Shown piece after piece: positions 2,104 to 57,974 of a stretch of 64,000 bases of DNA. Location: assembly GCA_028066595.1 (NCBI GenBank), contig JALCBJ010000030.1, forward strand, positions 8,580 through 72,579, written 5' to 3'. Under the pieces are notes generated by a model. That model made no database searches. It was not told where the DNA came from and worked only from the letters and a program-made list of their open reading frames with translations. This DNA comes from Thermoanaerobaculia bacterium (lineage in GTDB: Bacteria; Acidobacteriota; Thermoanaerobaculia; Multivoradales; J023). Both the position numbers and the translations under genes were made by a program. Position 1 is the first letter of the stretch. Every line of letters starts with the position of its first letter.

Positions 2104-5100
2104 TCAGTCGCCCCCGCGAAGGACAGCGCTCTCCACGATCACAGACCGGTCCGTTCGTAGCTCCAGGCCGTCCACGTTCCCCTGCCACCAACGCCATTGG
2201 GTGCTGAGTCGGACCAGATAGTCGTCGCGACCAGAACGATCTTGCAGTAGAGCGAACGAGAAAGAGCTCGCGGGCTCGCCCCAGGTCAGCGAGATGGTGG
2301 GGGGGCTCTGTGCCGCGTCGTCCTCGGTTCGGATTTCCAGGTGGAGGTAGGCGCCGAGGGCGACATCGAAGATCAGATCTTCGGGAAAACGTAGATCGAG
2401 GGGCTCGCCACTCTCCATCTCTACCGGCTCGTCGAGGAGGTCGGCGAGTATCCGAGTCGTCGTGGCTGCCTTCAGCGGATCGTGCCGAGCCCAGATCGCC
2501 GGCAATGCATCGAGATCGAAGTTCTGCGCCAATTCCTCGTCGCGCAGTGGCCGATGGGATGAGCCACGCCCGCGGACGCGGACCTCCCGGATGGTCAGGG
2601 TCGATCCTTGGGGTGGATCGAAGCGAAGGTCTGTGAGCTGTCTTCCCTGTCCACCTGGTATTTCCAGCGTGACGATCCCGTCAGCTGCATCTTCGGGCAA
2701 GAACCAAGCGTGGGACTCTGCCGCGAAATACTGATCATCGAAGCCGAAGAACATCTGGATGGGCTCGTCGGCGGTGGATTCCATTCGCAGCTCGACCTGC
2801 CAGTCGTTGTGTGTGTAGAGATCGGGCAACGGCGTGGTGTCGAAGATGCCGAAAACGTGACCACCCGATGTCTTCCCTACGACACGAATCGCCCCGTCGG
2901 CTTGGAAGTTCGCAGTAGCTCCATATTCCTCCGCGCTGGAAGTGGATTCCAGAGTCCACTCACGGGTGTCTGCCGTGGTGGGCCAGGGAATCAGACGATT
3001 CCTGCGCCACCAGATCTGGTATTTGCCCACCGCTGCCGCAGGCCGGTAGTTCTCATAGAGCCACTCCGCCACCCGATAGCAGCGAACTTCGTTCGGCACT
3101 CCGTCTGTGGCATCCCAGAAGGCGTTGCCTTGCTTGAAGATCACCAGGGGTAGGCGGTCCGCTGCGGCGTAGACCGAAAGATCTCGTAGGGTTCGTGCCT
3201 GGACGGTCTCCGAAGTCTGAAGGAGGTTAGGAATAATGTAGGTTGGAAACTCGCGCTCGGCCAAAGCGTAGAGAAGAGGCGCGTTCGAGAAGTCGAAGAA
3301 GGTCTCATCTGGCTCAAGATGTCGATCGAGGAAGTCCAGCAGAGCACGATGACGACCGTCCGCGAAGCGCACCCTAGGCTCCCCTTCTTGGAATCGGTGG
3401 AAGCGAAAGAGGGTATCTCCCTGGCGCAGCGCGATTCCTAGGGGTGACGAGATGTCTTGCCGGGCTGGCGGAAGCGCGAAGAGTGACGTGGTCACCAGGA
3501 CGGCCGCGAAGACCGCCCGGCTGGAGGGGCGCTCGAACCGGCCGCCGTTGCGTTGGAACAACAGCGGAAGCAGGGCTAGTAGTAGTACCGAAAGGTAGGG
3601 GTTGAAAGCTTCGATGAGCGAGTGCCGTTCCATGGACCGAACTGAGATCACCAGCGAGAACGCGGCCAGGAAGGTCAGTAGCTGGAGACGGGTCGAGACC
3701 CACCGCCTTTGCAGAAGCTGGCGAGCAGTCAGGACGACGATGTACAGCAAAGCGACAGCCGGCACGAGGTAGTACTGCAGGACAGCTGCAGCGGTGTAGC
3801 TCTCGATCACTTCCGGACGCGTTCTCGTAAGCAACCGGTAGGAGTACGATTGGAAGAAAAAGCCGATAGTCTCGAAGAGGCGGGGGCCAGCCAGCAGCCT
3901 TGCCGTGGCGATCGACACGACGAAACCCGAAACCATCCAGGCCGCTGCTCTGGCGGCTGCTCGGCGGCGGTGGGCACCTCGCAGGAGATGTAGGCCGACC
4001 ACACCTGCGGCAGCTACGGACGCTGCCAGGCCGAAATCGATGCGCCAAAGGAGCACAGCCACTAGGGCGCAGGCCAAAGCAACGAAACGAGCAGTGGTCG
4101 GCCGTCGCAGGGCCTTGGCCAGAAAGATCGCCGGGAGCAGCACGATGGCGTAGTAAGGCCTGAAGGTGGACAGCACGGGTAGGAACAGGCAGGCGAGGAG
4201 GGCATATCCTGGTGAGAAGATCCTCGCCAATACGAAATAGGCGAGCATCAATCCGACGAGGTTTTTCAGGCCATGGCTCCAGATAAGTAGGTCCAGGCCC
4301 TGGACACCGTGGAACATGGCGTAGAGCCACTCGTACGCCATGTCGGAGAAAGTATGGGTCAGGCGCAGATCCAGCAGAGGTACCTTGGAGAACTGCAGGA
4401 GCTGCTGTGTCGGCAGTACGCTCTCACCCAGATGAAAGTAGTCGAGGTTGCCCAGGTGACGATGCGAGGGATGAAATCGCAGTAGTCCGACGGTAAAGAC
4501 CGTGAGGCCGAAGTAGACGTACAAGAGCCGATCGGAAACGCTACGGCGAACGTCCGCAGATGCATGTCGACGAAGCGGATTCCAGTGGTAGAGACCGACC
4601 GTCGAGGCCACCAACAGCAGAATCAGGACCAGGGCCACCCTCCTCGGATCGAGTGAGCGGAAGGCAGCCTGGACTTCGTTGGCCAGGGGCAGCGATGCGG
4701 GAACGAGCAGCCAAGGAATGACGGAGGCCATTAGGCGCGTGGACTCGGCACGACCGGTCGTTCGAGCGAGTCGGTAGCCCACGAGCCACAATGTGAGCAG
4801 CCACAACAAGGCCCAGAGGGTGTACCACATCGCGGTAGGAGCGCCTTGGAACCCCAACGGACGATCCGTGACGACCCAAACTACGAAGAATGCCGGCACT
4901 GGCCAGAATAGGGTGGCTACCAAGAACGATCGATCCACCCGTCGTAGAGGCTCGATCATCGAGAAAGAGGCAAACCACCGGTGGTTGCGGATGATCAGCA
5001 CGCCGATTGCGAGTACCGAGAGAAAGGCAAGCAGTATTGTCAGCGGACGCAGATCCACCCCGGCCGGGAAGAAGACATCGTAGATGGCGAGCGCTGCCCA

Positions 5101-5507: not shown

Positions 5508-6764
5508 TCAGCCCAGGAGGTGGCTGGGCGGTGCCTCGACCGCCCAACCCGGGAAGAGAGACTTGCCTGGATCGAGTCGAAAGTGCTTTGTCGCCACTTC
5601 TTGGAATACGGTGCGAAAGTCGAGACCCACGGGGAGATCACGGCCCTCGAATAGGTTTTCCGGTGCCAACTTGGGAACGCTTCCGTGAACACGACCGCCT
5701 TCCACTTCACCTCCGAGGAGAAACAGGCATGAGCCGTGACCGTGGTCGGTGCCGCCCGTGCCGTTCTCGGCAACCGTGCGACCAAACTCGGTCATCGTCA
5801 TCAGGGTCACCTCGGCGCGATGGCGGCCCAGATCGTGCCAAAAGGCGGAGATCGAGCGGGCCAGATCGCCGGCTCGGGCCGCGAAGCTGCCGCGATCGCT
5901 TCCCTGTTGTACGTGGGTATCCCATCCGCCCGATTCGGCGAACGCGACTTGTAGTCCGACGTCCGATTTCACCAGGAAGGCGATCTGCATCAGAGCCCGG
6001 CCGAGGGGTGAGCTCGGGTAGTCGGCGCCGCTGGCGGGGCGGTAGTTTCTTACATCCAGTGCCTTCAGTGTTTCCACCGCCTCGAAGGTCTCGGCACCGG
6101 TGTCTCTAAGGAGGTCCTGCGAGGTCTGCTCGTAGAGTGCTTCGAAGCCCTGGCCGGCTGCCTGTGCGGCGCTGTGATTCCCTGGTAGCTCGACATCGAA
6201 TGTGCGCAGGTTGGTGACGGCGAGGGCGGGCTCGTTTCCATACAACGAGCGGGGAAGAGCCGGCGTCAGCGATACGGCTCGGAACGGCGTCGTGTCGTGG
6301 CCGAGACGTCCGACCACCCGGTTGAGCCAACCATCGGGTGTGCCTTTGCGGCCCGGAGTACCCGTTTCCATGTAATCCTGCGCATCGAAGTGTGATCGGG
6401 TGGAGGAAGGGGATCCGACTCCGTGAACGACTCCGAGGACTCCTTCGCGATATAGCGGTAGGAGGTCGCCGAAAGCTGGGTGAAGTCCGTAGCCGTTGCC
6501 GAGGTCCACCACTCGATCTCTCGATCGGCCGAGGCTCGACCCACCGGCGGGCAGATGTAGCCGTGGCCGAAGGCTCTGCAGCCTGGGATCGGTGAGTGGG
6601 GGCACTGCCGCGAGCCCGTCCATCGCACCGCGCTGGAAGATCGTCACCAGGACTTTGGGGCGGCGCCCGTTTGCACGCGCCGCGCGTTCGAGGAAGGTGG
6701 GCCCCGCGCCGACGGTGATCAAGGCGATGGCTCCGGACTTGAGGAAGGCTCTGCGGTCGAGCAT
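5508..6764 (-). CDS. DUF1501 family protein with a twin-arginine (Tat) signal
   Basis: N-terminus MLDRRAFLKSGAIALI is a Tat motif. The body matches the sulfatase-like DUF1501 family (GGWDTH..., TEFGRT...GTDHG). It is paired with the upstream DUF1800 gene, as is usual for this family. Confidence 0.8.
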   Translation of the reverse strand: MLDRRAFLKSGAIALITVGAGPTFLERAARANGRRPKVLVTIFQRGAMDGLAAVPPLTDPRLQSLRPRLHLPAGGSSLGRSRDRVVDLGNGYGLHPAFGDLLPLYREGVLGVVHGVGSPSSTRSHFDAQDYMETGTPGRKGTPDGWLNRVVGRLGHDTTPFRAVSLTPALPRSLYGNEPALAVTNLRTFDVELPGNHSAAQAAGQGFEALYEQTSQDLLRDTGAETFEAVETLKALDVRNYRPASGADYPSSPLGRALMQIAFLVKSDVGLQVAFAESGGWDTHVQQGSDRGSFAARAGDLARSISAFWHDLGRHRAEVTLMTMTEFGRTVAENGTGGTDHGHGSCLFLLGGEVEGGRVHGSVPKLAPENLFEGRDLPVGLDFRTVFQEVATKHFRLDPGKSLFPGWAVEAPPSHLLG

Positions 6765-6802
6765 GTCGGACTCCTGTGATCGGGTAGGTGTCGATGCGGC
6801 GG

Positions 6803-8872
6803 CTATCGGCGCTGGAACTCAGGTGAGCCGAGGATTACGCCGACGACGTGGGCGGTGAAGCTGTCATCCGGATGGGTTGCTGGCGCCGCTCGCCTTGCTC
6901 GGAGATCGCGCCGTCCGGGTCCTCGTGTGACGTCCCAGTCGGCGTCGCTCGAGACGTCGGTACCCCGGCCACCGGTCCGATCTCTTTCTGCCAAGGGATT
7001 CCAGGTGTTGTCCTCGTCGTCATCGGGCGCAGCTCGGGCGACCTTGTCGGCAAGGTCCGGATCCTGTATCACCGGCAGCAGTCTGCGCATGGTGGGTTCG
7101 GGATCCCGTTCCGGAATCAGGAAGGTGAGCCAATGACGCAATTGCTCCTCCGGTGACGTCTCGTCAGGCGGGTGGCCGGTGTATCGATCGAGCTCTACGC
7201 GAATACCCGCGACCCTTCCCGTGGCGAGCTGGAGACCGAAGTTCATTCGTTGGAGCAGGGCTCCGGTGTTCACCCATGCCTCGGCGCGGTCCGGGAAACC
7301 TGTGGGGGCTTGATACGCGTAGAGCGGTTGACCCATACGCCGGATCCACTCCAGGGTCTCTCGAGGGTCCGAGGAGTGGGCATCGAGTGCACGCAACGCC
7401 GAGATGGTCAGCTCGAATGGGGACTTGATCTTCTGGCCGATTGAGTCGGCCGACCAGAACTCAGGCGATGCGACCAGCTCCGCCAGCATGGCTCGGATAT
7501 CTCCTCCGGACGCTTGATAGATCTTCGCCAGCCGGTCGATGAGAGATCGCGGTGGCTGATCAGAAACGAACCGGATCGCTAGCTTGGTGGAGAGATGCTG
7601 GGCGGTGGACGGATGGTTCGCCAGAAGGTCCAGGACGTCCTCGCCGTCCTCGACACCCCGCCCCGCAGGCAGCTCGCGACCGAGAACGAGCTTGCGCTCC
7701 GCATCGTGGGCGTCCGGGCGGAAAAGAAAGGCATTTTCGATCACGAATCCGGCACGTGTACGTAGGCCTGCTCGGGCCCGTTCCAGTCGCTCCGGCAGTC
7801 CACGAGGTGGCACGACAGTCCAGCCCGTGAAGGATCGGGCCACCTCCACAACATCCTCTTGGGTGTAGCCGCCGTCCACGCCGAGGGTGTGAAGCTCCAT
7901 GAGCTCCCGGGCATAGTTCTCGTTCAGACCTGTGGCCCGTTGCCGGCCTCCTTGCGAGTCGCGCTGCCGCTGGTCGCGTAGCTCGGCCCGCCTCGGGCCA
8001 TTGATTCCACGACGACCTCGCCTCTCCGAGGCTCTTCTCGAGCGCAGGTCCCAGGTTGTCGTGGTGTCCTTCTCGGCCACACTGAGTGCGTTGTCGAGGT
8101 AGAGCAGCATGGCGGGGTGACGGGCGGTGGCTCCCAGCATGTCGTGGAACGAGCCAGCGACATGAGGCCGGATGGCGTCGCGCTCGTAGGGCCAGAGAAA
8201 GATGCGGGCCCGGTTGTCCGTAAGCGAGACGTTGAAGTGGTTGAACCAGAAGTCGGTGAGGACCTCGTGCAGCTGGTTCTCGGAATGCCGGGCGCGCGCC
8301 AGCTTCTGGATCATCAGGTCGGCCAGGGCTTCGCGCTGCGAGCCGAATCCCTTTTCTTCGGCAAGGGCACGGACTGCCCGTCGCTGCTCGGCCCTCTTCC
8401 GAGGCTCGGTTCCGGATCCCTCTGCCGGTAGGGCGGCAGCCGTGTCGCCCTCGGGCGACTCGATCACACCTTCTTGGATCGCCATACGCCGGACGGCCCC
8501 GGGAGACGGATATCGTCGCGCCAGCTCCAGAGCGTCCAGCTCGAAGGTCGCTAGACCCTCCAGGAAGCGATCGAGCTCAGGTGTTGCCAAGCCGCCGTCG
8601 AGTTGCTGCTCGAACCAGGTTTCCAAGCCGATCGCCAAGACCCGGTCGAGGTCGCCGGGTCGAGCGCCGAAGGTAAAGCGGTCGAGCAGATGAGCCGCAG
8701 CCTGGCGTTCCGTCAAGCCTGCCTGTCGCCAGGGCATCTCGATGGAGGAGTCGGCGGAGCCGGTGTGCCCGATATCGGCAGCCAAGGCCCAGCCGGGTAG
8801 TGCCAGCCAAGCGATGAGTAGGGCGAGGTGCCGGTGAGTCGGTGGATGAACAGCGCTGATTCGCGACGGCAT
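6803..8872 (-). CDS. DUF1800 family secreted protein (partner of DUF1501)
   Basis: 689-aa ORF with a signal peptide (MPSRISAVHPPTHRHLALLIAWLALPGWALAA). The early conserved DRFTFGARPGDLD stretch is typical of DUF1800. It lies immediately upstream of the DUF1501 gene. Confidence 0.75.
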   Translation of the reverse strand: MPSRISAVHPPTHRHLALLIAWLALPGWALAADIGHTGSADSSIEMPWRQAGLTERQAAAHLLDRFTFGARPGDLDRVLAIGLETWFEQQLDGGLATPELDRFLEGLATFELDALELARRYPSPGAVRRMAIQEGVIESPEGDTAAALPAEGSGTEPRKRAEQRRAVRALAEEKGFGSQREALADLMIQKLARARHSENQLHEVLTDFWFNHFNVSLTDNRARIFLWPYERDAIRPHVAGSFHDMLGATARHPAMLLYLDNALSVAEKDTTTTWDLRSRRASERRGRRGINGPRRAELRDQRQRDSQGGRQRATGLNENYARELMELHTLGVDGGYTQEDVVEVARSFTGWTVVPPRGLPERLERARAGLRTRAGFVIENAFLFRPDAHDAERKLVLGRELPAGRGVEDGEDVLDLLANHPSTAQHLSTKLAIRFVSDQPPRSLIDRLAKIYQASGGDIRAMLAELVASPEFWSADSIGQKIKSPFELTISALRALDAHSSDPRETLEWIRRMGQPLYAYQAPTGFPDRAEAWVNTGALLQRMNFGLQLATGRVAGIRVELDRYTGHPPDETSPEEQLRHWLTFLIPERDPEPTMRRLLPVIQDPDLADKVARAAPDDDEDNTWNPLAERDRTGGRGTDVSSDADWDVTRGPGRRDLRARRAAPATHPDDSFTAHVVGVILGSPEFQRR

Positions 8873-9094
8873 GGTGTCTCCGGTCTGGGCAGGGATCGCG
8901 AGTCGTTTCGTCGACCTGCAGGATGCAACCCATGACTCGGATGTTTCTTGCGCTCATCCGGGTGAATCTGTCGCGAGCGGCAAGCAGTCCGGGCGAGCAG
9001 GTCGCAACTCCGCCGGGATTGGTCTGGCAGGTGCGCTCAGTGCTCGGCCAGGGCCGACTCCCCCTAGCGCCAGAAGCTCAGCTTCTGGAATGCC

Positions 9095-10372
9095 TTAGTG
9101 GGGATCGGAGGCGCGCCGTTGCGGTGCCCTCTCGGGCTCTGTGCCCGAGGGGCCCACCACGCGGTTTCGGCCGCCCTGCTTGGCGCGATAAAGCCGCTCG
9201 TCGGCCAGGCGCAAGGCCTCCGACAAGTCGCTTCCGTCGTCGGGCCAAACCGCGACACCGATCGACACCGTAACCCGGACCACTTTTCCCTTCTCCAGGT
9301 GGATCGGGGTTCCCTCCATGCGGGCGCGCAGGATCTCGAGACGGTTGATTGCATCCTGGATGTTCATGCCTGGGAAGATGCCTGCGAACTCTTCGCCTCC
9401 GTAGCGGGCTACGAGGTCGGTGGTCCGAAACTGATTCGAAAGCACACGGGCGACGCTGACAAGGGCGATATCCCCGGCCTGATGACCATACGAGTCGTTG
9501 AACTTCTTGAAGTGGTCGACGTCGATCATCACCACAGCCACCGGATCGCCCGAGCGCGACGCGATGGCACCGATACGGTGGATGCTCTCGTTGAAGAAAC
9601 CTCGGTTCGCCAGATTGGTCAGGCGATCGCGATTAGAACGTGCCCGCTGTTCTTTGGCGCGAACCACGACCGTGGTGGCGAGAAGAGTCGCCATCGCGAG
9701 CAGGACGCCGCGTCCGATCTGGGAGGTCCAGCTGAACTGCTCCGCGAGAATCGGTGAGGTGGCAGCGTCGTTCAGATCCCACAACCACTCGGTGTAGTAG
9801 ACCAAACCGAGGTACTGCACCACCGCCGTGGTGCCGGCGAGGATACAGACTCTCCAGTCGTAACGCAGACTGGTCGCTCCGATGGCCAAGAAGTAGACCG
9901 GAAAGATCAGGAGGTCGTTGGTCACCTGCAGCGGTTGACCCAGCCGGAGGAAAATGAATAGGGAGAGAGTGACCAGAGACACGTCGATGATGCCGCTGAA
10001 GAAACCTATCCACCCCCGTCCCCAACTGCGCATGACCGCTGAATACACGATCAGGGCCTCGGCGAGGGCGGCAACGGCGAGCCAAAGAATGGCCTCCCGT
10101 CCACGCTCGTTGGGGGAATCGAAGTAGGTGCGGAGAGGGAAATAGAGGATCAGCACGATGATCAGCAGCCGCACGCCTGCGATCAACCATTCTCCCCGTT
10201 GCCCTGCATCGACCAGATCCGGATCCGGTGGGGCCCAGATGCGCCGGAACCAGGCCAGGAATCCGTCGGTCTTCTTCCCTGGCCGAGCCTGGCCAGCCCC
10301 GTGGGAATGTAGCGGTGGTTTGTGGGAGGTCTCGACCACGGTCGCCTGGCCGGGTGCTCCCGAAACGCTCAT
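9095..10372 (-). CDS. Membrane-anchored diguanylate cyclase (multi-TM N-terminal domain + GGDEF)
   Basis: C-terminal GGDEF domain: RYGGEEFAGIF, with DVDHFKKFNDSYGH and an upstream RxxD-like region. The N-terminal half carries five or six hydrophobic helices. Confidence 0.8.
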   Translation of the reverse strand: MSVSGAPGQATVVETSHKPPLHSHGAGQARPGKKTDGFLAWFRRIWAPPDPDLVDAGQRGEWLIAGVRLLIIVLILYFPLRTYFDSPNERGREAILWLAVAALAEALIVYSAVMRSWGRGWIGFFSGIIDVSLVTLSLFIFLRLGQPLQVTNDLLIFPVYFLAIGATSLRYDWRVCILAGTTAVVQYLGLVYYTEWLWDLNDAATSPILAEQFSWTSQIGRGVLLAMATLLATTVVVRAKEQRARSNRDRLTNLANRGFFNESIHRIGAIASRSGDPVAVVMIDVDHFKKFNDSYGHQAGDIALVSVARVLSNQFRTTDLVARYGGEEFAGIFPGMNIQDAINRLEILRARMEGTPIHLEKGKVVRVTVSIGVAVWPDDGSDLSEALRLADERLYRAKQGGRNRVVGPSGTEPERAPQRRASDPH

Positions 10373-31351: not shown

Positions 31352-34009
31352 TCATTCCCACCGCAAGATCCGGCTCGGGTCGACCCGGGCCGCCTTGCGG
31401 GCGGGGATGGCAGCAGCTATCAGTGCCGACGCGGCCACCAGAAGTGCCACGCCGACGAGCACCGACGGATCGGTGGCCGATACTCCGAAGAAGAGTCGCT
31501 CTGCGGCGTGGCCGGCAAGAATCGCGCCGCTCAGTCCGACGACGACCGCGGCGGCCGTCCAGGTGGCGACCCGGCGGACGAAGAGCCCTACGACTTCCAG
31601 CGGCCGAGCTCCCAACGCCATGCGCACGCCGACTTCTTGGCGACTCTCCGTGACCGAAAGCATGGTGACGCCATAGATGCCGACGATGGAAAGCAGGAAA
31701 GCCAGTGCGCCGAAGGCTGTGACGACTCGGGAAAGGAACTGCCGATCGGCCAGCGTGCCGCGGACGATGCTGCGGATGGGGTGGACGTCGTATACGGGAA
31801 TCGTCGGGTCGATCGCCGCTACGGATCCCCGGAGCTCGGGCGCCAGTGCCGCGAGATCGCGCTGTGTGGCCAGAACCAAGCTCATCCGACGCTCGGGCTC
31901 TTGGGCGTGGGGAAAGTAGATGGCCTGTCGCGGCGCCGTACCCGGATCCACGTGGTGCACGGTCTCCACCACACCTACGATGCGGCGTTCGCGCGCCGGA
32001 TCGCCCCAGTTGATGTGTAGACCTTTGCCCAGGGCGTCGCCGTTGGGCCAGAGATCGTCGGCGAGGTCGCGGCTGACGATGACGCTACCCACGGTGTCTT
32101 CGCCGTGATCGCTGGAGTCGAAGTTCCGCCCCTTCACCAGCTCGATACCCATGGCAGCGAAGTAGGCACCCTCCACCACGCGGATATCGGCGACCGGCCA
32201 GTCCGCCGCATCCGGTTCGGGGCGGTCCGTGGCGGCGAACGAGGTGCCGGCGCCCAGTCCTGCCATCGGGACCGCCGTGACGGCACCGACCCTGTCGACA
32301 CCTGGCAGGGCTCCGACATCAGCCATCAGCTGATCGAGAAAGTTCGACATGCGTTCGGGGCCGTAGTCGCGGGGCGGCGAGACGCTGAAGGCCACGACGC
32401 CGTCGGTGTCGAAGCCTGGGTCCACCGAGAGCAGTCGATGAATCGTCTGCAGCATGAGTGCGGCGCCCACGAGTAGGACGAGGGCCAGCGCGGTCTGGGC
32501 GAAGACCATCCCGGCACGTGCGCGGTGGCGGCCTCGTCCGCCGCCGAAATCGCGCGTGCTGCCGGGCCGCGCCGCGGCCCGGAGTCCGGAAAGACCGGTG
32601 AGCAGGGCCAGGACAATGATCAGCATGCTGCCGGCGGCCAGGGCCGCAACCCAAACGGCGCCTTCGGTCGTCGACGCCGCTGCCGCCAGATGTTCGGGCA
32701 GGCTCGCAGCGGAGAGTCGTCGTAGCCCCAGGGCCAAGACCCAGCCTGCGCCGGCGGCCAGACCCGCCAGCAATAGGCCTTCGGCGAAGAATTGGCGCGC
32801 GAGGCGTGTCCGGCCGGCCCCCAGTGCACGGCGGAGACCCAGCTCTTCGGCGCGGGCCAGGTTGCGCGACAACAAAAGGCTGGAGGCGTTGATGCAGACG
32901 ACCAACAGCAGCAGCAAGACCGCACCGCCCAGTGCCGTGAGCGGCAGCTCCAGCGGTTCCCGCAAGACCTCTGCCAGCGGGATGGCGTGGCCGATCCAGC
33001 CGGCGTTGAAATCGGGCATGGCCTCTCGTTGGCGATCCATGATGCCCGACGCCTCTGCGTGGGCTTCCTCCGGAGCAGAACCGTCCGCCAGTCGGGCTAC
33101 GATCATCAACCACCGGCCTCGCTGGGTCGCCCACTCTTCGGTCACCGGCAAGGGTCGCCAAAGGTCGGCGGCGTCGCCATACGGTGCTCGGGCGGGGCCC
33201 AGGTCGAGAGCGGCTCCCGGGGGCATGACTCCGATGACCTCATACGGAATGCCGTCGATTTTCAGCTTCTCTCCCTCGACGTCTCGGCGGCCGCCGAAGT
33301 GCTGCCGCCAGAGGCGGTGGCTGATCACCGCGGGTGCAGGATCTTCCAGAAGCCCATCCCCCGGTCGAAAGGTGCGCCCGACGGCTGGCGGAATCCCCAG
33401 CACCTCGAAGTACTCTTCCGTGACCCAGCGTGCACCGACGCGCATGGGCGGAACACCTTCAGCGTTCAGGCTCGCGGGGACCGTGATGAAGCCGGCCAGT
33501 TGGTCCAGCGTCTTCGCGCCGTCGCGGAACGCGACGAAGTTCGCCGGACCTACCACGTTCAGGCCCTTGCCGCGTGTCGTCTGCTCCTCCCAGAGCGTGA
33601 CGAGGCGATCCGGGTCGGAGAAGGGTAGCTTCTTCCAGAAAGCATGGTGCCAGATACCCGCCATCGTCAGACTGGTGCCGAGTCCCAACGCGAGCATGCC
33701 GACCAGGAGTATTGCCAGACCCGGTCGCTTGGCGAAGCGGCGGAGGGCGAATCGAAGATCCTGGCGGACCTCGTCGAGCCAGGCCACGAGGCGCCATCGA
33801 CGGTTCCGGATACCGGCCTCGCGGAGGCATTCGGCGGCATGTCGATCGAGATCGCCGAATCGTTCGAGGGCCTTGCGCCGTGCGTCCCGCTGGGACATAC
33901 CTTGGTCGACGTATTCCTTCGTTCGGAGTTCCAGATGAGTCGCCAGCTCTTCATGAACCTCCGACCCCGCCGGACGTTGCCACAGCGGAGATTTGTTGGA
34001 GCGTTTCAC
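31352..34009 (-). CDS. ADOP-type ABC transporter permease (duplicated FtsX/MacB-like), PadR-associated
   Basis: ORF 31352..34282, trimmed to the GTG at 34009 that overlaps the PadR stop (GTGA). The N-terminal soluble helix region matches ADOP N-termini (...EYVDQGMSQRDARRKALERFGDLDRHAAECLREAG...) and is followed by two FtsX 4-TM modules. Confidence 0.8.
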   Translation of the reverse strand: MKRSNKSPLWQRPAGSEVHEELATHLELRTKEYVDQGMSQRDARRKALERFGDLDRHAAECLREAGIRNRRWRLVAWLDEVRQDLRFALRRFAKRPGLAILLVGMLALGLGTSLTMAGIWHHAFWKKLPFSDPDRLVTLWEEQTTRGKGLNVVGPANFVAFRDGAKTLDQLAGFITVPASLNAEGVPPMRVGARWVTEEYFEVLGIPPAVGRTFRPGDGLLEDPAPAVISHRLWRQHFGGRRDVEGEKLKIDGIPYEVIGVMPPGAALDLGPARAPYGDAADLWRPLPVTEEWATQRGRWLMIVARLADGSAPEEAHAEASGIMDRQREAMPDFNAGWIGHAIPLAEVLREPLELPLTALGGAVLLLLLVVCINASSLLLSRNLARAEELGLRRALGAGRTRLARQFFAEGLLLAGLAAGAGWVLALGLRRLSAASLPEHLAAAASTTEGAVWVAALAAGSMLIIVLALLTGLSGLRAAARPGSTRDFGGGRGRHRARAGMVFAQTALALVLLVGAALMLQTIHRLLSVDPGFDTDGVVAFSVSPPRDYGPERMSNFLDQLMADVGALPGVDRVGAVTAVPMAGLGAGTSFAATDRPEPDAADWPVADIRVVEGAYFAAMGIELVKGRNFDSSDHGEDTVGSVIVSRDLADDLWPNGDALGKGLHINWGDPARERRIVGVVETVHHVDPGTAPRQAIYFPHAQEPERRMSLVLATQRDLAALAPELRGSVAAIDPTIPVYDVHPIRSIVRGTLADRQFLSRVVTAFGALAFLLSIVGIYGVTMLSVTESRQEVGVRMALGARPLEVVGLFVRRVATWTAAAVVVGLSGAILAGHAAERLFFGVSATDPSVLVGVALLVAASALIAAAIPARKAARVDPSRILRWE

Positions 34010-34353
34010 GACGCCGGCTCCGTCGACAAGACGCGCGAAACGATCTGGGCGAACCGCGTCCAATCTTCGGTTTCCCTCTGCAACTGCGCACGTCCGAACG
34101 GTGTCAAGCGATAGTGCTTGGCACGGCGTCCCAACTCCGAGACGCCCCATTCCGACTCCACATACCCTCGTTTCTCGAGTCGGTAGAGAGCAGGGTAGAG
34201 GGAACCCTCTTCGATACGAAGCATGTCGTCGCTGACGTCCTCCAGCCAACGGGCGATGCCATAGCCATGGCGAGGTCCCCACGCCAGAGTCTTGAGGATC
34301 AGCGTGTCGAGAGTGCCGCGCAGCAGGTCGGAGCTAGAGGTGTCTTTCGCCAT
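34006..34353 (-). CDS. PadR family transcriptional regulator
   Basis: 115 aa with the winged-HTH PadR signature LILKTLAWGPRHGYGIARWL...GSLYPALYRLEKRGYVESEW. Confidence 0.85.
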   Translation of the reverse strand: MAKDTSSSDLLRGTLDTLILKTLAWGPRHGYGIARWLEDVSDDMLRIEEGSLYPALYRLEKRGYVESEWGVSELGRRAKHYRLTPFGRAQLQRETEDWTRFAQIVSRVLSTEPAS

Positions 34354-34443
34354 GTCGACTCCGTTCGTCGGAATTGCCTAGAGTGTCTAGGTAATGGATA
34401 CGAACGGTCTGGTGAAAGGTTACCCAGTCTGTCTAGGTGTGAG

Positions 34444-34502
34444 TGTTTTCTTGAACTCCCCCTCCAGCTCCCCCTCTCCGAAGAGGGGGAGAGCCAAGGC
34501 AG
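34444..34502. repeat. 59-bp intergenic repeat, copy 1, with an embedded hairpin (CTCCCCCTC-TCCGAAGA-GGGGGAG)
   Basis: Direct reading: tgttttcttgaactccccctccagctccccctctccgaagagggggagagccaaggcag. Recurs at 34639..34697 with 2 mismatches. Confidence 0.8.
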
Positions 34503-34576
34503 CTCCACGACCCGCGATCGACGCACCGGGGACGGATTCACCTGCGACGAGACTTCCGGCGTCATGCACACCCAGT

Positions 34577-34600
34577 GCCCCCCTTTTCCGAAAGGGGGGT
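34577..34600. repeat. Related C-run / TCCGAAA / G-run hairpin (cccccttttccgaaagggggg)
   Basis: Seen directly, between the two 59-bp copies. Same poly-C / ccgaa / poly-G architecture. Confidence 0.6.
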
Positions 34601-34638
34601 TAGGGGGGATTTCGAATCAACGCCGCTTGGCAGCAGCT

Positions 34639-34697
34639 GTTTTCTTGAACTCCCCCTCCAACTCCCCCTTTCCGAAGAGGGGGAGAGCCAAGGCAGG
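34639..34697. repeat. 59-bp intergenic repeat, copy 2 (hairpin ctcccccttt-ccgaaga-gggggag), immediately 3' of the GNAT gene stop
   Basis: tgttttcttgaactccccctccaactccccctttccgaagagggggagagccaaggcag; it could double as the terminator of the 34704..35327 gene. Confidence 0.8.
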
Positions 34698-34703
34698 GGC
34701 GTT

Positions 34704-35327
34704 TCAAGAAGCAGACGGGTTGGTTTCGTCCGGCAGGAAGTCCTCCTCCAGGTCCACTTCCCGCGACATCATGATCAGATTGTGGGTGCGGCCTTCGCGA
34801 TCGATGACCCAGTCGTGGAGCATGGCCTCGGGAATGAAGCCCAAGCTGTGAAACAGGGTCTGAGCGCTCCGCTGCGTGCTGGTCATCTGAGCCACCAGTT
34901 TCTGCAGATCCTGACGTTTCGCCAGTTCTAGAATCTGGCGCGCGAGGCGGCCTCCGAGGCCGTGGCCACGCCCGTCGGACGCCACCAGGAGCAGGATCTC
35001 CCCAAGGTGACGGGTCCACAGGCTCTCCGAGAGTTGCAAGCTGGAGTAGCCCAGGATTCTCTCTGCTCCGTCACTGGAGCTGGGCTCCACCGCAACGACC
35101 GTCTGCGTCTGACCTGACTCCAGGTCCCGAAGCCATTGGTCGACGACGTGTTCCTGCGTGATGTCAGTGCGCAGGAAGAGAAGATCTTCTTCCGGCAACG
35201 CGCGCGCAAAGCGCAAGACAGCCCTGCGGTCATCCGCTGTCATGGAACGAAGCAACGCGGGTCGCCCGTCCAGATCCACGGTTTCCGGGAGATTCGGATC
35301 TTCCACGATGAGGGTCACGGTCAGCAA
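34704..35327 (-). CDS. GNAT family N-acetyltransferase
   Basis: 207 aa with motif A (VASDGRGHGLGGRLARQILE). Confidence 0.75.
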   Translation of the reverse strand: MLTVTLIVEDPNLPETVDLDGRPALLRSMTADDRRAVLRFARALPEEDLLFLRTDITQEHVVDQWLRDLESGQTQTVVAVEPSSSDGAERILGYSSLQLSESLWTRHLGEILLLVASDGRGHGLGGRLARQILELAKRQDLQKLVAQMTSTQRSAQTLFHSLGFIPEAMLHDWVIDREGRTHNLIMMSREVDLEEDFLPDETNPSAS

Positions 35328-35353
35328 ATCATATCAGCGGACCATCTCGACCT

Positions 35354-35716
35354 TCAGTACGGCATCTCCTCGTCGGACAGCCCAAAATGATGCCCGAGCT
35401 CGTGAACCACGGTGTCCCGGATTTCTAGGATCAGCTCTCGGCGGCTACGGCAGTAACGACACAACGGCCCGCGAAAGATCGATACGTGGTCGGGGAGGCC
35501 GAAGTAGCCCACCTCCCGTTCGGTCTGGGGCACACCGGTATACAGACCCAGCAACTCTTCACCGGGATCGAAGCCCATCTCCTCGAGAATGGCCGCGTCC
35601 GGCTCGTCCGCGACCACCACTGCCACGTTCTCGAGTAGCTCGGCGAATTGCTCTGGCAGCTGGTCGAGCGCCCTCTCGACCAAGGCCTCGAATTCCTCCG
35701 GCGGAACCCTCAACAT
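35354..35716 (-). CDS. Zincin-like metallopeptidase (HExxH; DUF1025-type)
   Basis: HELGHHFG zinc-binding motif. ORF 35354..35767; probable start MLRVPPEEFEAL... at 35716. Divergent from the REC-LpxC gene. Confidence 0.6.
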   Translation of the reverse strand: MLRVPPEEFEALVERALDQLPEQFAELLENVAVVVADEPDAAILEEMGFDPGEELLGLYTGVPQTEREVGYFGLPDHVSIFRGPLCRYCRSRRELILEIRDTVVHELGHHFGLSDEEMPY

Positions 35717-35790
35717 CTCGTCTCCCGGGGGAACGTGGCGTAGCCCTGGCGGGGGCTGGGGAGCCACCTGGGTGCTGTATCATCTCGCCC

Positions 35791-37098
35791 ATGTCCGCCA
35801 GCGTTCTCATCATCGACGACGAGCCCGGCGTCATCGGCGCCGTCGCCGACGTATTGGTCGACGAAGGCTACCAAACGCTGACGGCCCGAAGCGGCGCGAC
35901 CGGGATGGAGCTCTTCCGGAGCGAACGTCCCGATGTCGTGTTTCTCGACATCTGGCTGCCGGACCGAGATGGTCTCGAGGTGCTGCACGCGCTACGCGAA
36001 GCCGATCCGACCGTCGCGGTGGTGATGATCTCCGGACACGGTACGGTGTCTACTGCGGTCAAGGCTATTCGCATGGGTGCCTATGAGTATCTTGAAAAGC
36101 CTCTTTCCTATGAGCAGGTCACGCAGGCGATGGAGGGAGCCCTGGACTTTCGCAGGCGCGGCGGCGGCGACTCGCAAGCGACCGATTCCGGACGCGACCG
36201 AGGCGAGGTGGCCGCCGAGATTCAGCCTCCACCGGTGCTGCCGATCGTCAAGAACGGTCGCAAGCACCAACGCACCATCAAGCACTCGACCGTGATTTAC
36301 GGACTGGGGCTCCATTCGGGTACGCGGACCGCCATGGTCCTCCAACCCTTGCCCCCCAACTCCGGCATCCAATTCCTCACACTGCCAGCCGAGAAGGTCA
36401 TTTCGGCGCATGTGACGAGCGTCGCGGAGACGGACTACGCCACCACGCTGTCTCGGGAGGGCGAGAGCGTCAAGACCGTGGAGCACCTGCTTTCGGCGCT
36501 CCACGCCTACGGCATCACCAACCTGCTGATCAAGGTCCATGGCGAGATTCCGGTCCTCGATGGATCGGCCCTCGAGTTCTGCCGCGCGCTTGACGAGTCG
36601 GGGGTAGAGAGCCAGCGCGTGGTCCGCCGTGAGCTGGTCATCGATCGGGTCTACGAGATCGGGGGCGATGAGAAGAGGCCCGACAAGAGGCTCACCATCG
36701 AGCCTTACGATGGCTTTGCCGTTACCTATCAGTTGAGTTACCCTCCGCCGATCGGAGACCAATACTGTGAGTTCGAGCTCGACTCCGTCGAGGGCTACAA
36801 GGCCGAGATCGCGCCGGCACGTACGTTCGGTTTCGTGAAGGACGTGAAGATGATCAACGAGCTGGGCCTGGGCTCTGGCGGCCGTCTCGACAACCACATT
36901 CTGGTGGGTGAGGACGACATCATCAACACCGAGCTACGGTTCGACAACGAGTTCGTGCGCCACAAAATCCTCGACATCATCGGCGATCTGTACTTGAACG
37001 GTTTTCCGATTCGCGGCAGGGTTCGAGCGCACCTCACCGGCCACCGCGACAACATCGCCATCGTGCGGGAGATCTTCGAGGCCAACTCACCGCAATAG
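35791..37098 (+). CDS. lpxC: Response-regulator receiver domain fused to UDP-3-O-acyl-N-acetylglucosamine deacetylase (REC-LpxC)
   Basis: Start MSASVLIIDDEP at 35791 inside longer ORF 35158..37098. REC residues are intact: DD acidic pocket (IIDDE), phospho-acceptor Asp (VVFLDIWLPD), the conserved Ser/Thr (VVMISGHG) and Lys (LEKPL). LpxC body aligns with E. coli LpxC: GLGLHSG, VEHLLSALHAYGITN (E78/H79), ARTFGFV (T191/F192), HKILDIIGDLYL (H238/D242), TGHRDN (H265). Confidence 0.85.
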   Translation: MSASVLIIDDEPGVIGAVADVLVDEGYQTLTARSGATGMELFRSERPDVVFLDIWLPDRDGLEVLHALREADPTVAVVMISGHGTVSTAVKAIRMGAYEYLEKPLSYEQVTQAMEGALDFRRRGGGDSQATDSGRDRGEVAAEIQPPPVLPIVKNGRKHQRTIKHSTVIYGLGLHSGTRTAMVLQPLPPNSGIQFLTLPAEKVISAHVTSVAETDYATTLSREGESVKTVEHLLSALHAYGITNLLIKVHGEIPVLDGSALEFCRALDESGVESQRVVRRELVIDRVYEIGGDEKRPDKRLTIEPYDGFAVTYQLSYPPPIGDQYCEFELDSVEGYKAEIAPARTFGFVKDVKMINELGLGSGGRLDNHILVGEDDIINTELRFDNEFVRHKILDIIGDLYLNGFPIRGRVRAHLTGHRDNIAIVREIFEANSPQ

Positions 37099-47976: not shown

Positions 47977-48057
47977 GCTGGGGGCTCCTTGCGTGAGTGG
48001 TGGGATGGGAAGCGTATCAACCCTGGTGGTGGTGAGGCCGGGCGTAGGATGAAGCGT

Positions 48058-48661
48058 CTCCCGGAGTAGCGCTCGGCGCAACTCCGGGCTAGAGGACGCA
48101 ACCCCTTCGGGGTAGGAAGGCAGGTTGGTCGTAGTCAGTCCCAAACGTACCTTTCGTCGTATTCGATGTCGTGCCTGTCGAGGAGGTGGCGGAACTCGTC
48201 TTGGAACGACCTTGTCGCATGGTGTCTCTCTTGGTTCCGGATGTAGGTCCGAACCGTCTCGATCTGAGAGGTGCTGACAGAAAAGGCACCGTAACCTTCC
48301 TGCCAGTAGAAGGAACGTAGGTCTCGGCTTCTCTTCTTGAGCCAGATCGAAGTTTCTCGCTTCAGTTCCTTCACTAGATCCGCGATCGCTACAGTCCGGT
48401 GGAGAGTGCAAAGAATGTGAGCGTGGTCGGTGACGCCTCCGACAGCAATTGACGCGCAGCGCTGGCGCTCGCAGGTTGACGCCAAGAACACATGCGTTTC
48501 GTCGAGGATTGTTCGATCCTCGAGATAGGGGAGCCTGTTCTTGGTCGAGAAGACGATGTGAACGAAAATCTGAGACAGAGACTGAGGCATGTTGAATCCG
48601 TCTAATGCCCCGAAGGGGCTTCTTTCAACAGCCCGGAGTTGGCGTCTGCGCCTACTCCGGG
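48058..48661 (-). mobile_element. REP-associated tyrosine transposase (RAYT) unit: IS200-like Y1 transposase gene flanked by inverted REP-like hairpins
   Basis: Left flank at 48058..48112: cccggag-N15-ctccggg plus ccccttcgggg. Right flank at 48607..48661: gccccgaaggggc plus cccggagt-N13-actccggg. Each flank carries the same two hairpins; they lie in mutually inverted order around the Y1 transposase gene. Confidence 0.65.
48135..48590 (-). CDS. IS200/IS605-family Y1 (HUH) transposase, RAYT-like
   Basis: 151 aa. N-terminal FVHIVFSTKNRLPYL (Y1_Tnp signature), HuH motif (DHAHIL), catalytic Tyr region (QEGYGAFSVS). Confidence 0.8.
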   Translation of the reverse strand: MPQSLSQIFVHIVFSTKNRLPYLEDRTILDETHVFLASTCERQRCASIAVGGVTDHAHILCTLHRTVAIADLVKELKRETSIWLKKRSRDLRSFYWQEGYGAFSVSTSQIETVRTYIRNQERHHATRSFQDEFRHLLDRHDIEYDERYVWD

Positions 48662-48685
48662 TGCGGTTTCGTCGGGGCCATCGGT

Positions 48686-56162: not shown

Positions 56163-57974
56163 CTAGTCCGAAAGCATGACCAGGCCGGTGCGTACCAGAC
56201 CCAGGACGACCAGAGAAACGATGGCGAAACCGATCGCGAGCCACGGACCGGGCTCGTAGGCGAGCGGTGCGCGATAGCCCATGCCCCGAAGCAAGGGCAC
56301 CATGACGAACGATACCGGTATGAGGATACCCAGGAACGCAAGCAGGCCGCTCTCCTCTTCGCCCGACGCCAGCCCTGGGATGAGCACCTGAGCCCATTTG
56401 TTGTCAGCCAGACCCGATGAGACACGCGGAACCTGACGTGCCTTGAGACCCACTTGCTTGCGAGCTTGGTGCAGGATCAGAGCCAAGATCAGAGCTGCCA
56501 GCCCGGTGGCGAAGGCTCGATGCCGACGCAGCAGATCGAACGGCTCTTTGCTTTGCGCCACGGGCCTCCAAAGATCCACCATCAGGCCACGAATCTCGTC
56601 CAAGCGGCGCATGCTGCCGTCGACAGGGATGGCGCTCTCGGTGGCCGACTGGGCTCCGAGATCCTTCCAGCGGTCTGCACCGTCCGGGTCGAGCTCGCGC
56701 GCGCGGGCCAGAGCGGCATGACTGGGATCCCACTCGAACATCTGAGCGTAGGCCTGAGACAGATCGTAGAAGGCGATGGCGAGCTCGTCGTCGGCCTGCG
56801 TAGCGCGCTGAAAGTAACTGGCTGCAGTGTCGTATTCCTGCTTGCGGTGATGATAGACGCCGATGTTGGTGAATGCGGTGGCGCTGTTGGATGACGCCTG
56901 CTCCGGGTCATAGGCGAGCTCGGTGTAGATGGCTCGTGCGTGATCCCACTGGCCCAGCTTGCGATGAAGGTCTCCGGCCAGCTCGGTGACCGCCGGGCTA
57001 TCGGGAGCCAGGGAACGCAATACCTCGAGGTCGGAGAAGATCGAGCCATACAGACGAGAGCTGGCCATGTTGTCCACCAAGCGCGTGGGCGGCAGCAGAG
57101 CCAGCTGGGCCTCTCGTTGCTGGTACGAGAGGAGGAGTGGACTCAGACCCAGTGCCAGCCATAGCGCGACCAGCACACTCTTCTCGCTGCGTGAGCCATA
57201 CGTGAAGAGCAGGATCGACCAGTAGAGAATCAGCCAGAGCACCCCCCTGGGAAGCACGACCGGCCAGAGCAGGATCAGGACAGCGACGATATCTGCCTGG
57301 CCCCGCGACAGGACGCCCGAGAACAAGCGCGCCAGATCGTAGAACACGGCGCTTCCTTTCAGCGCCATGAGCAGGGCTACGAAAAGGCCGCCGGTGAACA
57401 GCAGTGTATAGAGTGCCCAGAGCTGGAGGTTGTTCAGCCACAGCGTCCGTTCCAGCGGCATGCCTAGGGCCAACACATGGCCTCGCAGGGCACTCGACAC
57501 TCCGCCGATATAGTCCCCTTGAAGCCTCAGGATGGTGGATTCCGCGAACTCGCTCTCGGGTCGCGCTTCGTCGAAAGAGCGTGCCGCTTCGAGAGCCCAC
57601 CGGGCCCGCTCGAAATCGCCGCCCTGTGCCGCCTCCACCCCTAAAGCCACGGCGGCGTTCGCGAGATCGGGCAGCCGCTGCATACCGAGAGTGCGTGACA
57701 GGCTGTTGATCTGATCGAGCGCCGTCTGTGCCGCCTCGCGATCGGAGGCGCGGAACGCCTGGTTCCACTCACCCCACGCCTGCTGCAGAGTCCACAGCGT
57801 CTTGCGGGTCTCCGGGATGAGCTCCACTCCGCCCAAGTCGCCCTCCGCGAGGGCGGACGGTACCCACAGCAGGGCAACGGAGAGCAGGACCGGCATCAGG
57901 GCCAGCGCTCCGCATCGCGGGGACGAGCCGGCGGCGCGGGACCTGCTGCGCGCGGCTGTTGAAGAGGGGTTCAT
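56163..57974 (-). CDS. Polytopic membrane protein with TPR repeats
   Basis: 603 aa: signal/TM, several TM helices in the middle, and TPR-like repeats (AFTNIGVYHHRKQEYDTAASYFQRATQ..., AIAFYDLSQAYAQMFEWDPSHAALARAREL). Confidence 0.6.
   Translation of the reverse strand: MNPSSTAARSRSRAAGSSPRCGALALMPVLLSVALLWVPSALAEGDLGGVELIPETRKTLWTLQQAWGEWNQAFRASDREAAQTALDQINSLSRTLGMQRLPDLANAAVALGVEAAQGGDFERARWALEAARSFDEARPESEFAESTILRLQGDYIGGVSSALRGHVLALGMPLERTLWLNNLQLWALYTLLFTGGLFVALLMALKGSAVFYDLARLFSGVLSRGQADIVAVLILLWPVVLPRGVLWLILYWSILLFTYGSRSEKSVLVALWLALGLSPLLLSYQQREAQLALLPPTRLVDNMASSRLYGSIFSDLEVLRSLAPDSPAVTELAGDLHRKLGQWDHARAIYTELAYDPEQASSNSATAFTNIGVYHHRKQEYDTAASYFQRATQADDELAIAFYDLSQAYAQMFEWDPSHAALARARELDPDGADRWKDLGAQSATESAIPVDGSMRRLDEIRGLMVDLWRPVAQSKEPFDLLRRHRAFATGLAALILALILHQARKQVGLKARQVPRVSSGLADNKWAQVLIPGLASGEEESGLLAFLGILIPVSFVMVPLLRGMGYRAPLAYEPGPWLAIGFAIVSLVVLGLVRTGLVMLSD

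Follow-up and report, generated by a model that had tools for sequence, protein, structure and literature searches.

Repeats of candidate class II intrastrand triplex motifs in the gap between a GNAT and a PadR gene of a Thermoanaerobaculia genome

What are the strong hairpins between a GNAT acetyltransferase gene and a PadR-family regulator gene, and do they control either gene? The question is raised by a 64,000-nt stretch of a Thermoanaerobaculia bacterium (Acidobacteriota; assembly GCA_028066595.1, contig JALCBJ010000030.1, positions 8,580 to 72,579 of the forward strand), hereafter called the window. In it, genes for a Zincin_1 protein, the GNAT acetyltransferase, the PadR-family regulator and an ADOP/FtsX permease all lie on the minus strand, and the gap from the GNAT stop to the PadR start spans 350 bp (34354-34703), exactly as given in an initial annotation made from the letters of this DNA. 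That annotation described two near-identical 59-bp repeats and three hairpins in the gap, and considered REP-like (repetitive extragenic palindromic) elements, PadR operator decoys and a structured noncoding RNA. We conclude that the block very probably consists of class II intrastrand triplex motif repeats of a dispersed family that were inserted here, as selfish or neutral DNA and not as a dedicated regulator. The coordinates of all features are collected in Table 1.

Three hairpins with a mirror-image third block

The two 59-nt copies are direct repeats that differ at 2 positions and start 194 bp apart; 0/100 shuffles gave any such match. Copy 1 (34444-34502) and the number of mismatches are as first annotated, and copy 2 lies at 34638-34696 instead of 34639-34697, with a spacing of 194 and not 195 bp. 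Copy 2 begins 7 nt past the GNAT stop, adjoining it as had been described, and copy 1 ends 90 nt (not ~95) from the PadR start. The stem of copy 1 (CTCCCCCTCT/AGAGGGGGAG) is perfect, with 10 bp and a 4-nt loop; the stem of copy 2 is interrupted by a C.A mismatch due to one of the two substitutions, so that of the perfect 7-9 bp stems assigned to both copies only that of copy 1 stands, in a longer form. The third hairpin, placed at 34577..34600 and called related by the initial annotation, is indeed related: it occupies 34578-34599, and with the adjoining TTAGGGGGGATTT (ending at 34612) it repeats part of the core in inverted orientation, with 80% complementarity to copy 2 across 30 nt. The small open reading frames (ORFs) over the repeat had been taken for mere translations of it, and the ENA record calls no gene there.

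Each hairpin is followed, 3 nt later, by a third block of G, A and T in which the purine arm recurs in mirror order, at times with T in place of A. This block is absent from the initial annotation and is the feature that identifies the class: in a class II intrastrand triplex motif, pyrimidine (Y), purine (R) and reverse-Hoogsteen (RH) blocks are consecutive on one strand (Holder et al. 2015, PMC4666352). Such motifs were earlier named BoxC repeats in E. coli, then PIT elements (Hoyne/Maher 2000) and then listed in the TM/TMECO catalogue (PMC4666352). The published ITxF definition asks for a stem of 6-15 nt, at most one mismatch if the stem is longer than 7, and loops of 1-6 nt (PMC4666352); all three motifs have its block order and lie within its stem and loop limits (loops 4 and 3). 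Judged by the antiparallel purine-motif triads (G*G-C, A*A-T, T*A-T), all but one of the triads in the window motifs are allowed.

Chance does not readily produce such motifs. An ITxF-style scanner (stem at least 8, at most one mismatched triad, loops 1-8 and 1-6) reported 4 motifs in the window, where 100 dinucleotide shuffles averaged 0.01. With stems of at least 10 it reported 3 (stems 10-11), all in the GNAT-PadR gap, against 0 in 100 shuffles; for motif 1 the scanner gives a stem of 11 nt (34455-34492) that includes 1 mismatched triad. The fourth match, at 57110-57141(+) (CCTCTCGT / ACGAGAGG / GGAGTGGA), is weak (stem 8, one mismatch) and unrelated in sequence to the three gap motifs, and may be chance.

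The triad rule also holds outside this genome. Among 44 de-duplicated instances from other contigs, 127/129 cells at the three positions flanking the G runs are allowed triads, and position 2 covaries: a duplex G goes with a third-block G in 11/11 cases and a duplex A with T in 31/32. Over 36 nt, motif 3 shares 97% identity with a motif of L080, an unrelated contig from a metagenome, and its consensus is common to more than 20 instances from many samples. A looser pattern, the bare hairpin core, matched 74 loci in JGI metagenome contigs. About a third of these carry a second G run 1-6 nt past the hairpin, followed by ATTT or AGT, which the pattern did not require, and they come from unrelated samples with unrelated flanks; the 74 loci include no close relative of the 59-mer.

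Motifs 1 and 2 lie on the minus strand and motif 3 on the plus strand, where it forms an inverted pair with motif 2. Through this pairing the stretch 34579-34683 is predicted to fold as one long hairpin of ~105 nt (z = -4.3; the ViennaRNA folds cover Watson-Crick hairpins only, not triplexes). An Rfam 15 scan of 33000-36000 at E up to 1 returned only mir-9168 and mir-H20, with 24 and 23 bits against gathering thresholds of 100 and 99. Both are chance matches to miRNA precursors that reflect only the long hairpin, which explains them. With no Rfam family and no conservation in orthologous loci, the suggested structured noncoding RNA was abandoned. Other candidates were also rejected: a Shine-Dalgarno role for the second G run (the next start codon lies anywhere between 6 nt and 70 nt or more away), an integron attC site (no GTTRRRY core), a CRISPR array (irregular spacing), a tRNA-like T-arm (ruled out by sequence) and a G-quadruplex (two free G runs only).

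Orthologous loci, a second array and the competing explanations

The same junction measures ~265 bp in the window versus 14 nt in the closest orthologous locus, L029 (PadR 85% identity, Zincin-GNAT-PadR-ADOP order kept), where these 14 nt lead from the GNAT stop to the first of two operator-like palindromes. A 3.6-kb gene and no repeat stands at the GNAT-PadR junction of L028 (PadR 83% identity), and L030 (PadR 78% identity) has another upstream neighbour and no repeat. All three loci conserve the 90 bp adjoining padR (34354-34443), including CCTAGAC-N3-CTAGG. Since this PadR side is conserved in the relatives, the ~265 bp from 34444 to 34710 read, on the sequence comparison, as a lineage-specific insertion outside the conserved PadR control region. 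The junction itself varies in three ways among these relatives: nothing, a 3.6-kb gene or the repeat. The L028 insert (5994-9632) is a 1212-aa gene on the opposite strand with Big_5/PKD/RoxA-like cytochrome c domains.

The palindromes, at 34374-34392 (CCTAGA-GTG-TCTAGG) and 34420-34438 (CCCAGT-CTG-TCTAGG), lie 20-85 nt upstream of padR; being conserved in three orthologous loci, they are likely PadR binding sites within the promoter region. This bears directly on the proposal that the repeats are regulatory DNA of the PadR-ADOP operon, as extra operators, decoys or an upstream activating structure. Copy 1 does adjoin the distal palindrome, its end being 90 nt upstream of the PadR start. However, the repeats are neither conserved with the palindromes nor similar to them, and at a second locus of the family the neighbourhood lacks a PadR gene. 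We regard such a role as very improbable, and the operator decoys of the initial annotation fall with it.

That second locus, L121, is on scaffold_206 of ENA assembly ERZ23492275, in which the window is scaffold_82. Both scaffolds have MPN21_ locus tags and neighbouring protein accessions and therefore belong to one metagenome-assembled genome (MAG). The locus was found by searching a protein collection with a chimeric query of five 59-mer ORFs, which led to one spurious 158-aa ORF. L121 holds a tandem array with a 182-bp period, bordered by a Ser/Thr kinase gene on one side and by a convergent 242-aa gene on the other; it has two complete units, which agree at 178/182 positions, and part of a third. 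Window positions 34448-34697 match it at 78.6% identity over 252 bp, and two of its motifs (5848-5885 and 6030-6067) have blocks identical to those of window copy 1; its spacers hold an inverted hairpin without the third block. At both loci the last unit has the CCAACT variant and an internal deletion and ends in GGGG(N)TTTCAAGAA, the inverted complement of the 59-mer start TTCTTGAAC-TCCCC; the cap that closes the L121 array reads GGGGATTTCAAGAA. The shared variant, deletion and cap suggest that the composite was copied as a block and then amplified locally. At least 5 copies of the 59-mer are thus present, over two loci in one MAG, and a lack of further copies, which the initial annotation would have held against its reading, is not what is seen.

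A purely local tandem duplication, with no family and no special structure, would fit two 59-mers that are 2 bases apart in sequence and 194 bp apart in position, and neither the 59-mer nor the hairpin core has another copy in the window (blastn-short of the 59-mer and of the 253-bp unit included). It is refuted by L121, which shares unit, variant and cap; moreover, the architecture is common to dozens of unrelated contigs and the motif count is far above shuffles. We give it next to no weight. Nor is the arrangement an assembly artefact, since an independent Logan assembly of run SRR18090836 matches the whole of it base for base, up to the copy 1 loop. Two Logan contigs of this run (the start of L002 and the end of L106) break at 34480/34481, inside that 4-nt loop, and a contig passes through the imperfect copy 2 and the third motif. 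That the assembly breaks in the one perfect motif may mean that coverage falls where a structure blocks the polymerase.

The initial annotation had also connected the hairpins with a Y1 (IS200/RAYT-like) transposase gene at 48135-48590, which would make them REPs or REPINs mobilised by it. The Y1_Tnp gene is real (Pfam E = 1.6e-25) and lies 13.5 kb away, and REPs are likewise short GC-rich hairpins that cluster in alternating orientation. However, the gene has inverted repeats of its own, of 34 nt and 22 nt, with hairpins CCCGGAGTAGCGC/GCGCAACTCCGGG and CCCCTTCGGGG and a GTAG head; these flanking sequences are absent from 34354-34703, and the 59-mer is absent near the transposase. No GTAG or GTGG stands by the stems on either strand of the 59-mer. 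Mobilisation by this transposase is thus hardly credible. What remains of the earlier idea is a dispersed element, borne out by the lineage-specific insertion and the second locus, and what is lost is the link to the RAYT, given the different flanking repeats. The repeats at 48048-48112 and 48608-48673 bracket the 151-aa Y1_Tnp gene (minus strand) in a RAYT-like arrangement, and their hairpins have no further copy in the window.

As an insertion of triplex motif repeats, the block probably has the following history. The unit, of ~182-194 bp, comprises a 59-mer with one motif and then a spacer with an inverted motif. Such units amplify in tandem, and a composite of them appears to have been copied whole to at least two loci. 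In the window the block landed between the GNAT stop and the conserved PadR operator and promoter, and it now provides the final codons and the stop of the GNAT gene; the cap overlaps these codons, and GNAT C-termini vary among orthologues. When the G strand becomes single-stranded during replication, repair or transcription, it would fold as a hairpin and then add the third strand to form an antiparallel purine-motif triplex (G*G-C, A*A-T, T*A-T), as the literature on the class would predict. That real strands form the hairpin and triplex when single-stranded is our inference from this analogy. Polymerases may stall at such structures, and the resulting slippage or repair would account for both duplications (194 bp and 182 bp), for local rearrangements, for the loss of third blocks and for a junction that varies between relatives. 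Effects on the neighbours would probably be limited to insulation or to stabilisation of the GNAT transcript 3' end by RNA hairpins.

This last effect leads to a rival with somewhat more to say for itself, namely that the block works at the RNA level, as a U-tract-less terminator, an insulator or a 3'-end stabiliser that separates the GNAT transcript from PadR-ADOP in the manner of enterobacterial REPs. Copies 1 and 2 are on the sense strand, the one nearer to the GNAT stop (copy 2) follows it by 7 nt, and the RNA of the 350-nt gap folds at -167 kcal/mol (z = -6.0 vs shuffles); as L029 has nothing between GNAT and the PadR operator, the insertion would newly insulate the two. However, the hairpins are followed by AGCTGGAGG..., AGTTGGAGG... 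or TTAGGGGGG and none by a T-run, which leaves the 'terminator-like' copy 2 of the initial annotation unsupported as a canonical terminator, and a promoter/terminator scan of the gap found no promoter and no terminator-like site on either strand of 34354-34703. Furthermore, the element is absent from all three orthologous loci, the array at the second locus stands between convergent genes, and E. coli PIT/BoxC repeats are without promoter or terminator activity, as relayed by PMC4666352 from its ref. 41. We therefore consider an RNA-level role unlikely; it would in any case be a by-product of the insertion, not the reason for its existence.

Several points weigh against our reading of the block as triplex motif repeats. 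The G runs are symmetrical, so that part of the 'mirror' signal can also be read as a direct repeat, and an alternative hairpin between the C run and the second G run is possible, as in the minimum free energy fold of copy 2. The E. coli TMECO triplex has been shown in vitro on single strands only: there the folds are very stable and stop polymerases, and stable structures were not detected in vivo (PMC4666352). The window blocks do not fit the TMECO consensus 5'-CCCTCNCCC N3-6 GGGNGAGGG N3 GGGNGAGGG-3'. The family proper is seen at two loci only, the window and scaffold_206. The exact 24-nt hairpin has 0 matches in JGI metagenome contigs, and the 20-nt core CCCCCTYTCCGAARAGGGGG gives 25 singletons from unrelated taxa in GTDB species representatives, a collection that evidently lacks the source genome; of these the Gemmatimonadota match has nothing in common with the repeat beyond the hairpin core. 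There is no mobility gene for the family in the window and no DUF559 gene in 12.5 kb of scaffold_206. Finally, a terminator or stabiliser role for the GNAT message, as a by-product, keeps some probability.

If our reading is right, a candidate regulator is removed from this locus: control of PadR-ADOP would reside in the conserved 90 bp by the gene, and the hairpins would be an inserted repeat. The locus also shows triplex motifs within a larger unit that is tandemly amplified and block-copied, and adds another example of triplex-motif loci as rearrangement hot spots.

Table 1. Positions of the features discussed, in window coordinates unless a locus is named.
Feature	Position	Strand	Remarks
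Whole repeat block (putative insertion)	34444..34710	.	Order: 59-mer copy 1, spacer, inverted motif, 59-mer copy 2, terminal cap
59-nt repeat copy 1	34444..34502	-	93-94% identity to three L121 copies
59-nt repeat copy 2	34638..34696	-	CCAACT variant, which also marks last L121 array unit
Repeat-unit spacer	34503..34577	.	Homologous to L121 array spacers; no coding or RNA-family signal detected (no DUF559 remnant, no Rfam match)
Terminal cap AGGGGCGTTTCAAGAA	34695..34710	.	Inverted complement of 59-mer start TTCTTGAACTCCCCCT (34642-34657); overlaps GNAT stop codon and last codons
Class II triplex motif 1	34455..34491	-	Y block CTCCCCCTCT 34482-34491, loop TCGG 34478-34481, R block AGAGGGGGAG 34468-34477, loop CTG 34465-34467, third block GAGGGGGAGT 34455-34464; 10/10 triads allowed
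Class II triplex motif 2	34649..34685	-	Y block 34676-34685, loop 34672-34675, R block AAAGGGGGAG 34662-34671, loop TTG 34659-34661, third block GAGGGGGAGT 34649-34658; 9/10 triads, one mismatched
Class II triplex motif 3 ('third hairpin')	34578..34612	+	Y block CCCCCCTTT 34578-34586, loop TCCG 34587-34590, R block AAAGGGGGG 34591-34599, loop TTA 34600-34602, third block GGGGGGATT(T) 34603-34612; 9/9 triads
PadR-operator-like palindromes and presumed PadR promoter	34374..34438	-	CCTAGAGTGTCTAGG and CCCAGTCTGTCTAGG on + strand; conserved in L028, L029, L030
ADOP/FtsX permease gene	31352-34009	-	Downstream of PadR gene
PadR-family regulator gene	34006-34353	-	
GNAT acetyltransferase gene	34704-35318	-	3' end adjoins and overlaps element
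Zincin_1 gene	35354-35767	-	
DUF559 gene, hairpin-fetched	L046 130-560	-	
DUF559 gene, hairpin-fetched	L073 1907-2340	-	
DUF559 gene, hairpin-fetched	L094 1273-1740	+	
DUF559 genes, hairpin-fetched	L019 4203-4700 and 4830-5300	+	
DUF559 gene in 50-kb control	L119 24555-24985		
DUF559 gene in 50-kb control	L120 24347-24805		
~60-nt conserved motif	L046 560-680	-	
~60-nt conserved motif	L073 1800-1880 and 2350-2420	-	
~60-nt conserved motif	L094 1735-1800	+	

Close to this block, the window encodes at 35791-37098(+) a 435-aa protein with an N-terminal receiver domain (PF00072) fused to LpxC (PF03331), and the same fusion occurs in L028.

Triplex motifs around DUF559 genes

A by-product of the hairpin searches is an association with another gene family. 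Genes of the DUF559 family (PF04480, Vsr-like endonucleases) have triplex motifs within about 200 bp in about 15/17 loci examined. Usually the motifs form an inverted pair, one on each side of the gene, and in many cases the downstream motif contains the stop codon. The loci come from Bacteroidota, Cyanobacteria, Deinococcota, Alpha-, Beta- and Gammaproteobacteria and uncultured peat organisms. All 6 DUF559 genes in the loci fetched with the hairpin, those on three peat-metagenome contigs and the two in a Bacteroidota MAG included, have a motif 13-42 nt upstream. In four cases or more, a further, inverted copy overlaps the stop codon or directly follows it.

Twelve further loci (L107-L118) were taken from plasmid and chromid records of various phyla. 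A strict motif (stem at least 8) lies within about 200 bp of the DUF559 gene in 9/12: those of Azospirillum, Sphingomonas, two Deinococcus, Synechocystis, S. meliloti, Photobacterium, Neisseria and E. coli (ycjD), with the motif about 160-170 bp downstream in the last two. Two cyanobacterial loci have stems of 4-6 nt, seen with a relaxed scanner in Pseudanabaena (G5-6 runs) and by eye only in Picosynechococcus (G4-5 runs); at the Methylobacterium locus nothing passed the motif criteria. The motif sequences are lineage-specific and obey the mirror rule, as GGGGAGAGGG-CTA-GGGTGAGGGG of S. meliloti illustrates. Two 50-kb controls contained 2 motifs in Deinococcus, both flanking a DUF559 gene inserted at the paaD-paaZ junction, and 4 in Sphingomonas, 2 of which flank a DUF559 gene inserted at the sufB-sufC junction.

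DUF559 is grouped with Vsr and the nuclease domain of EDxHD homing endonucleases, and we found no mention of its association with triplex motifs in the open literature. It is a tentative possibility that triplex-motif repeats (BoxC/PIT/TM) are the cognate DNA of DUF559 proteins, much as REPs are of RAYTs. A DUF559 gene would then travel between an inverted motif pair, or home into such pairs, and gene-less pairs and arrays like those of the window would be non-autonomous or 'empty' derivatives. Neither the window nor L121 contains a DUF559 gene or remnant by tblastn and by a profile built from 17 DUF559 sequences; the link to the window element therefore consists in shared architecture only. 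If the idea is true, two long-standing puzzles, the spread of BoxC/PIT repeats and the role of DUF559, become testable, and a repeat class that has lacked a mobility function since the 1990s is supplied with one. This by-product may then matter more than the window element, whose own interest is modest.

We found no empty allele of the Sphingomonas sufB|sufC insertion, as the plasmid collection holds no close relative. In distant genomes the junction is contiguous (several other genera) or carries other small inserts. At the same junction Shinella (L122 440-870) has a small GIY-YIG-like ORF flanked by inverted CCTCGGG-CTTGT-CCCGAGG hairpins, and Xanthomonas sacchari (L123 390-555) a gene-less BoxC-like triplex motif. 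On the three peat contigs, a conserved motif of ~60 nt (CTGTATGGTATCATCNGAGGGGAG...TATGGAGA) lies downstream of the DUF559 cassette, in L073 on both sides, and may be the leader of a host gene. In Bacteroidales MAGs (L036 at 1685 and 4929(-); L014, L015, L023, L056), two different triplex motifs, CCCCCTCTCCGAAGAGGGGGCTGGGGGGAGT and CCCCCTCCTTTGGAGGGGGCTTGGGGGAGG, sit at the start of and just past an ORF of ~1100-1170 aa, and the upstream flanks are conserved.

Comparison with known repeat classes

The element shares most with the TM class. E. coli BoxC repeats are about 56 bp long and have about 20-30 copies. According to PMC4666352, E. coli has five inverted TM pairs made up of two loop types, rearrangement between strains is greater at TM loci, a purine-motif triplex is not expected at the RNA level, the TMECO matches listed are proteobacterial, and neither mobility functions nor common flanking genes were found. 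Like that class, the window element has the Y-loop-R-loop-RH order, with stems of 9-10 and loops of 4 and 3 nt, is G/C-rich and strictly intergenic, has no adjacent transposase, and occurs as single motifs or inverted pairs mixing two loop types, including a TTA second loop. As with TMECO, its loci vary between close relatives, by presence or absence and by small deletions that leave the hairpin.

REP, BIME and REPIN elements resemble it as short GC-rich intergenic palindromes that are dispersed, cluster in alternating orientation and vary between relatives; unlike REPs, it has no GTAG-type head and differs from the sequence flanking the Y1 gene, and its mirror third block has no REP counterpart. 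The likeness to miniature inverted-repeat transposable elements (MITEs) lies in the length of ~265 bp, the absence of coding sequence, the 14-16-nt terminal inverted repeats (TTCTTGAAC-TCCCC ... GGGG-N-TTTCAAGAA), the folding as a long hairpin and the block copying to a second locus. The 16-nt terminal inverted repeat is present at both loci. However, no target-site duplication was recognisable by eye at either of them, the left end at L121 not being sharply defined; internal tandem amplification is atypical for MITEs, and no parent insertion sequence or transposase is known. With H-DNA it shares the mirror symmetry of purine tracts and the triad rules; H-DNA uses two blocks, duplex DNA and supercoiling, whereas the motifs here have three blocks on one strand and need single-stranded DNA.

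Within the TM class, the differences from TMECO concern sequence, host and organisation. The window blocks are CTCCCCCTCT/AGAGGGGGAG/GAGGGGGAGT and CCCCCCTTT/AAAGGGGGG/GGGGGGATT, against CCCTCNCCC/GGGNGAGGG/GGGNGAGGG in TMECO, and the host is an Acidobacteriota (Thermoanaerobaculia) MAG. Nearer to the TMECO consensus than these blocks is a BoxC-like motif of L029 (CCCCTCTCC / GGAGAGGGG / GGGGTGAGG, 4481-4517) directly after the ADOP stop, where the window has a 25-nt spacer and no motif. Unlike BoxC, the motifs of the window lie inside a unit of 182-194 bp that forms tandem arrays and is closed by a 16-nt inverted cap, an organisation we did not find described for BoxC. Since it does not fit the TMECO consensus, the element is a different, lineage-new member of the intrastrand triplex motifs, with a larger composite unit.

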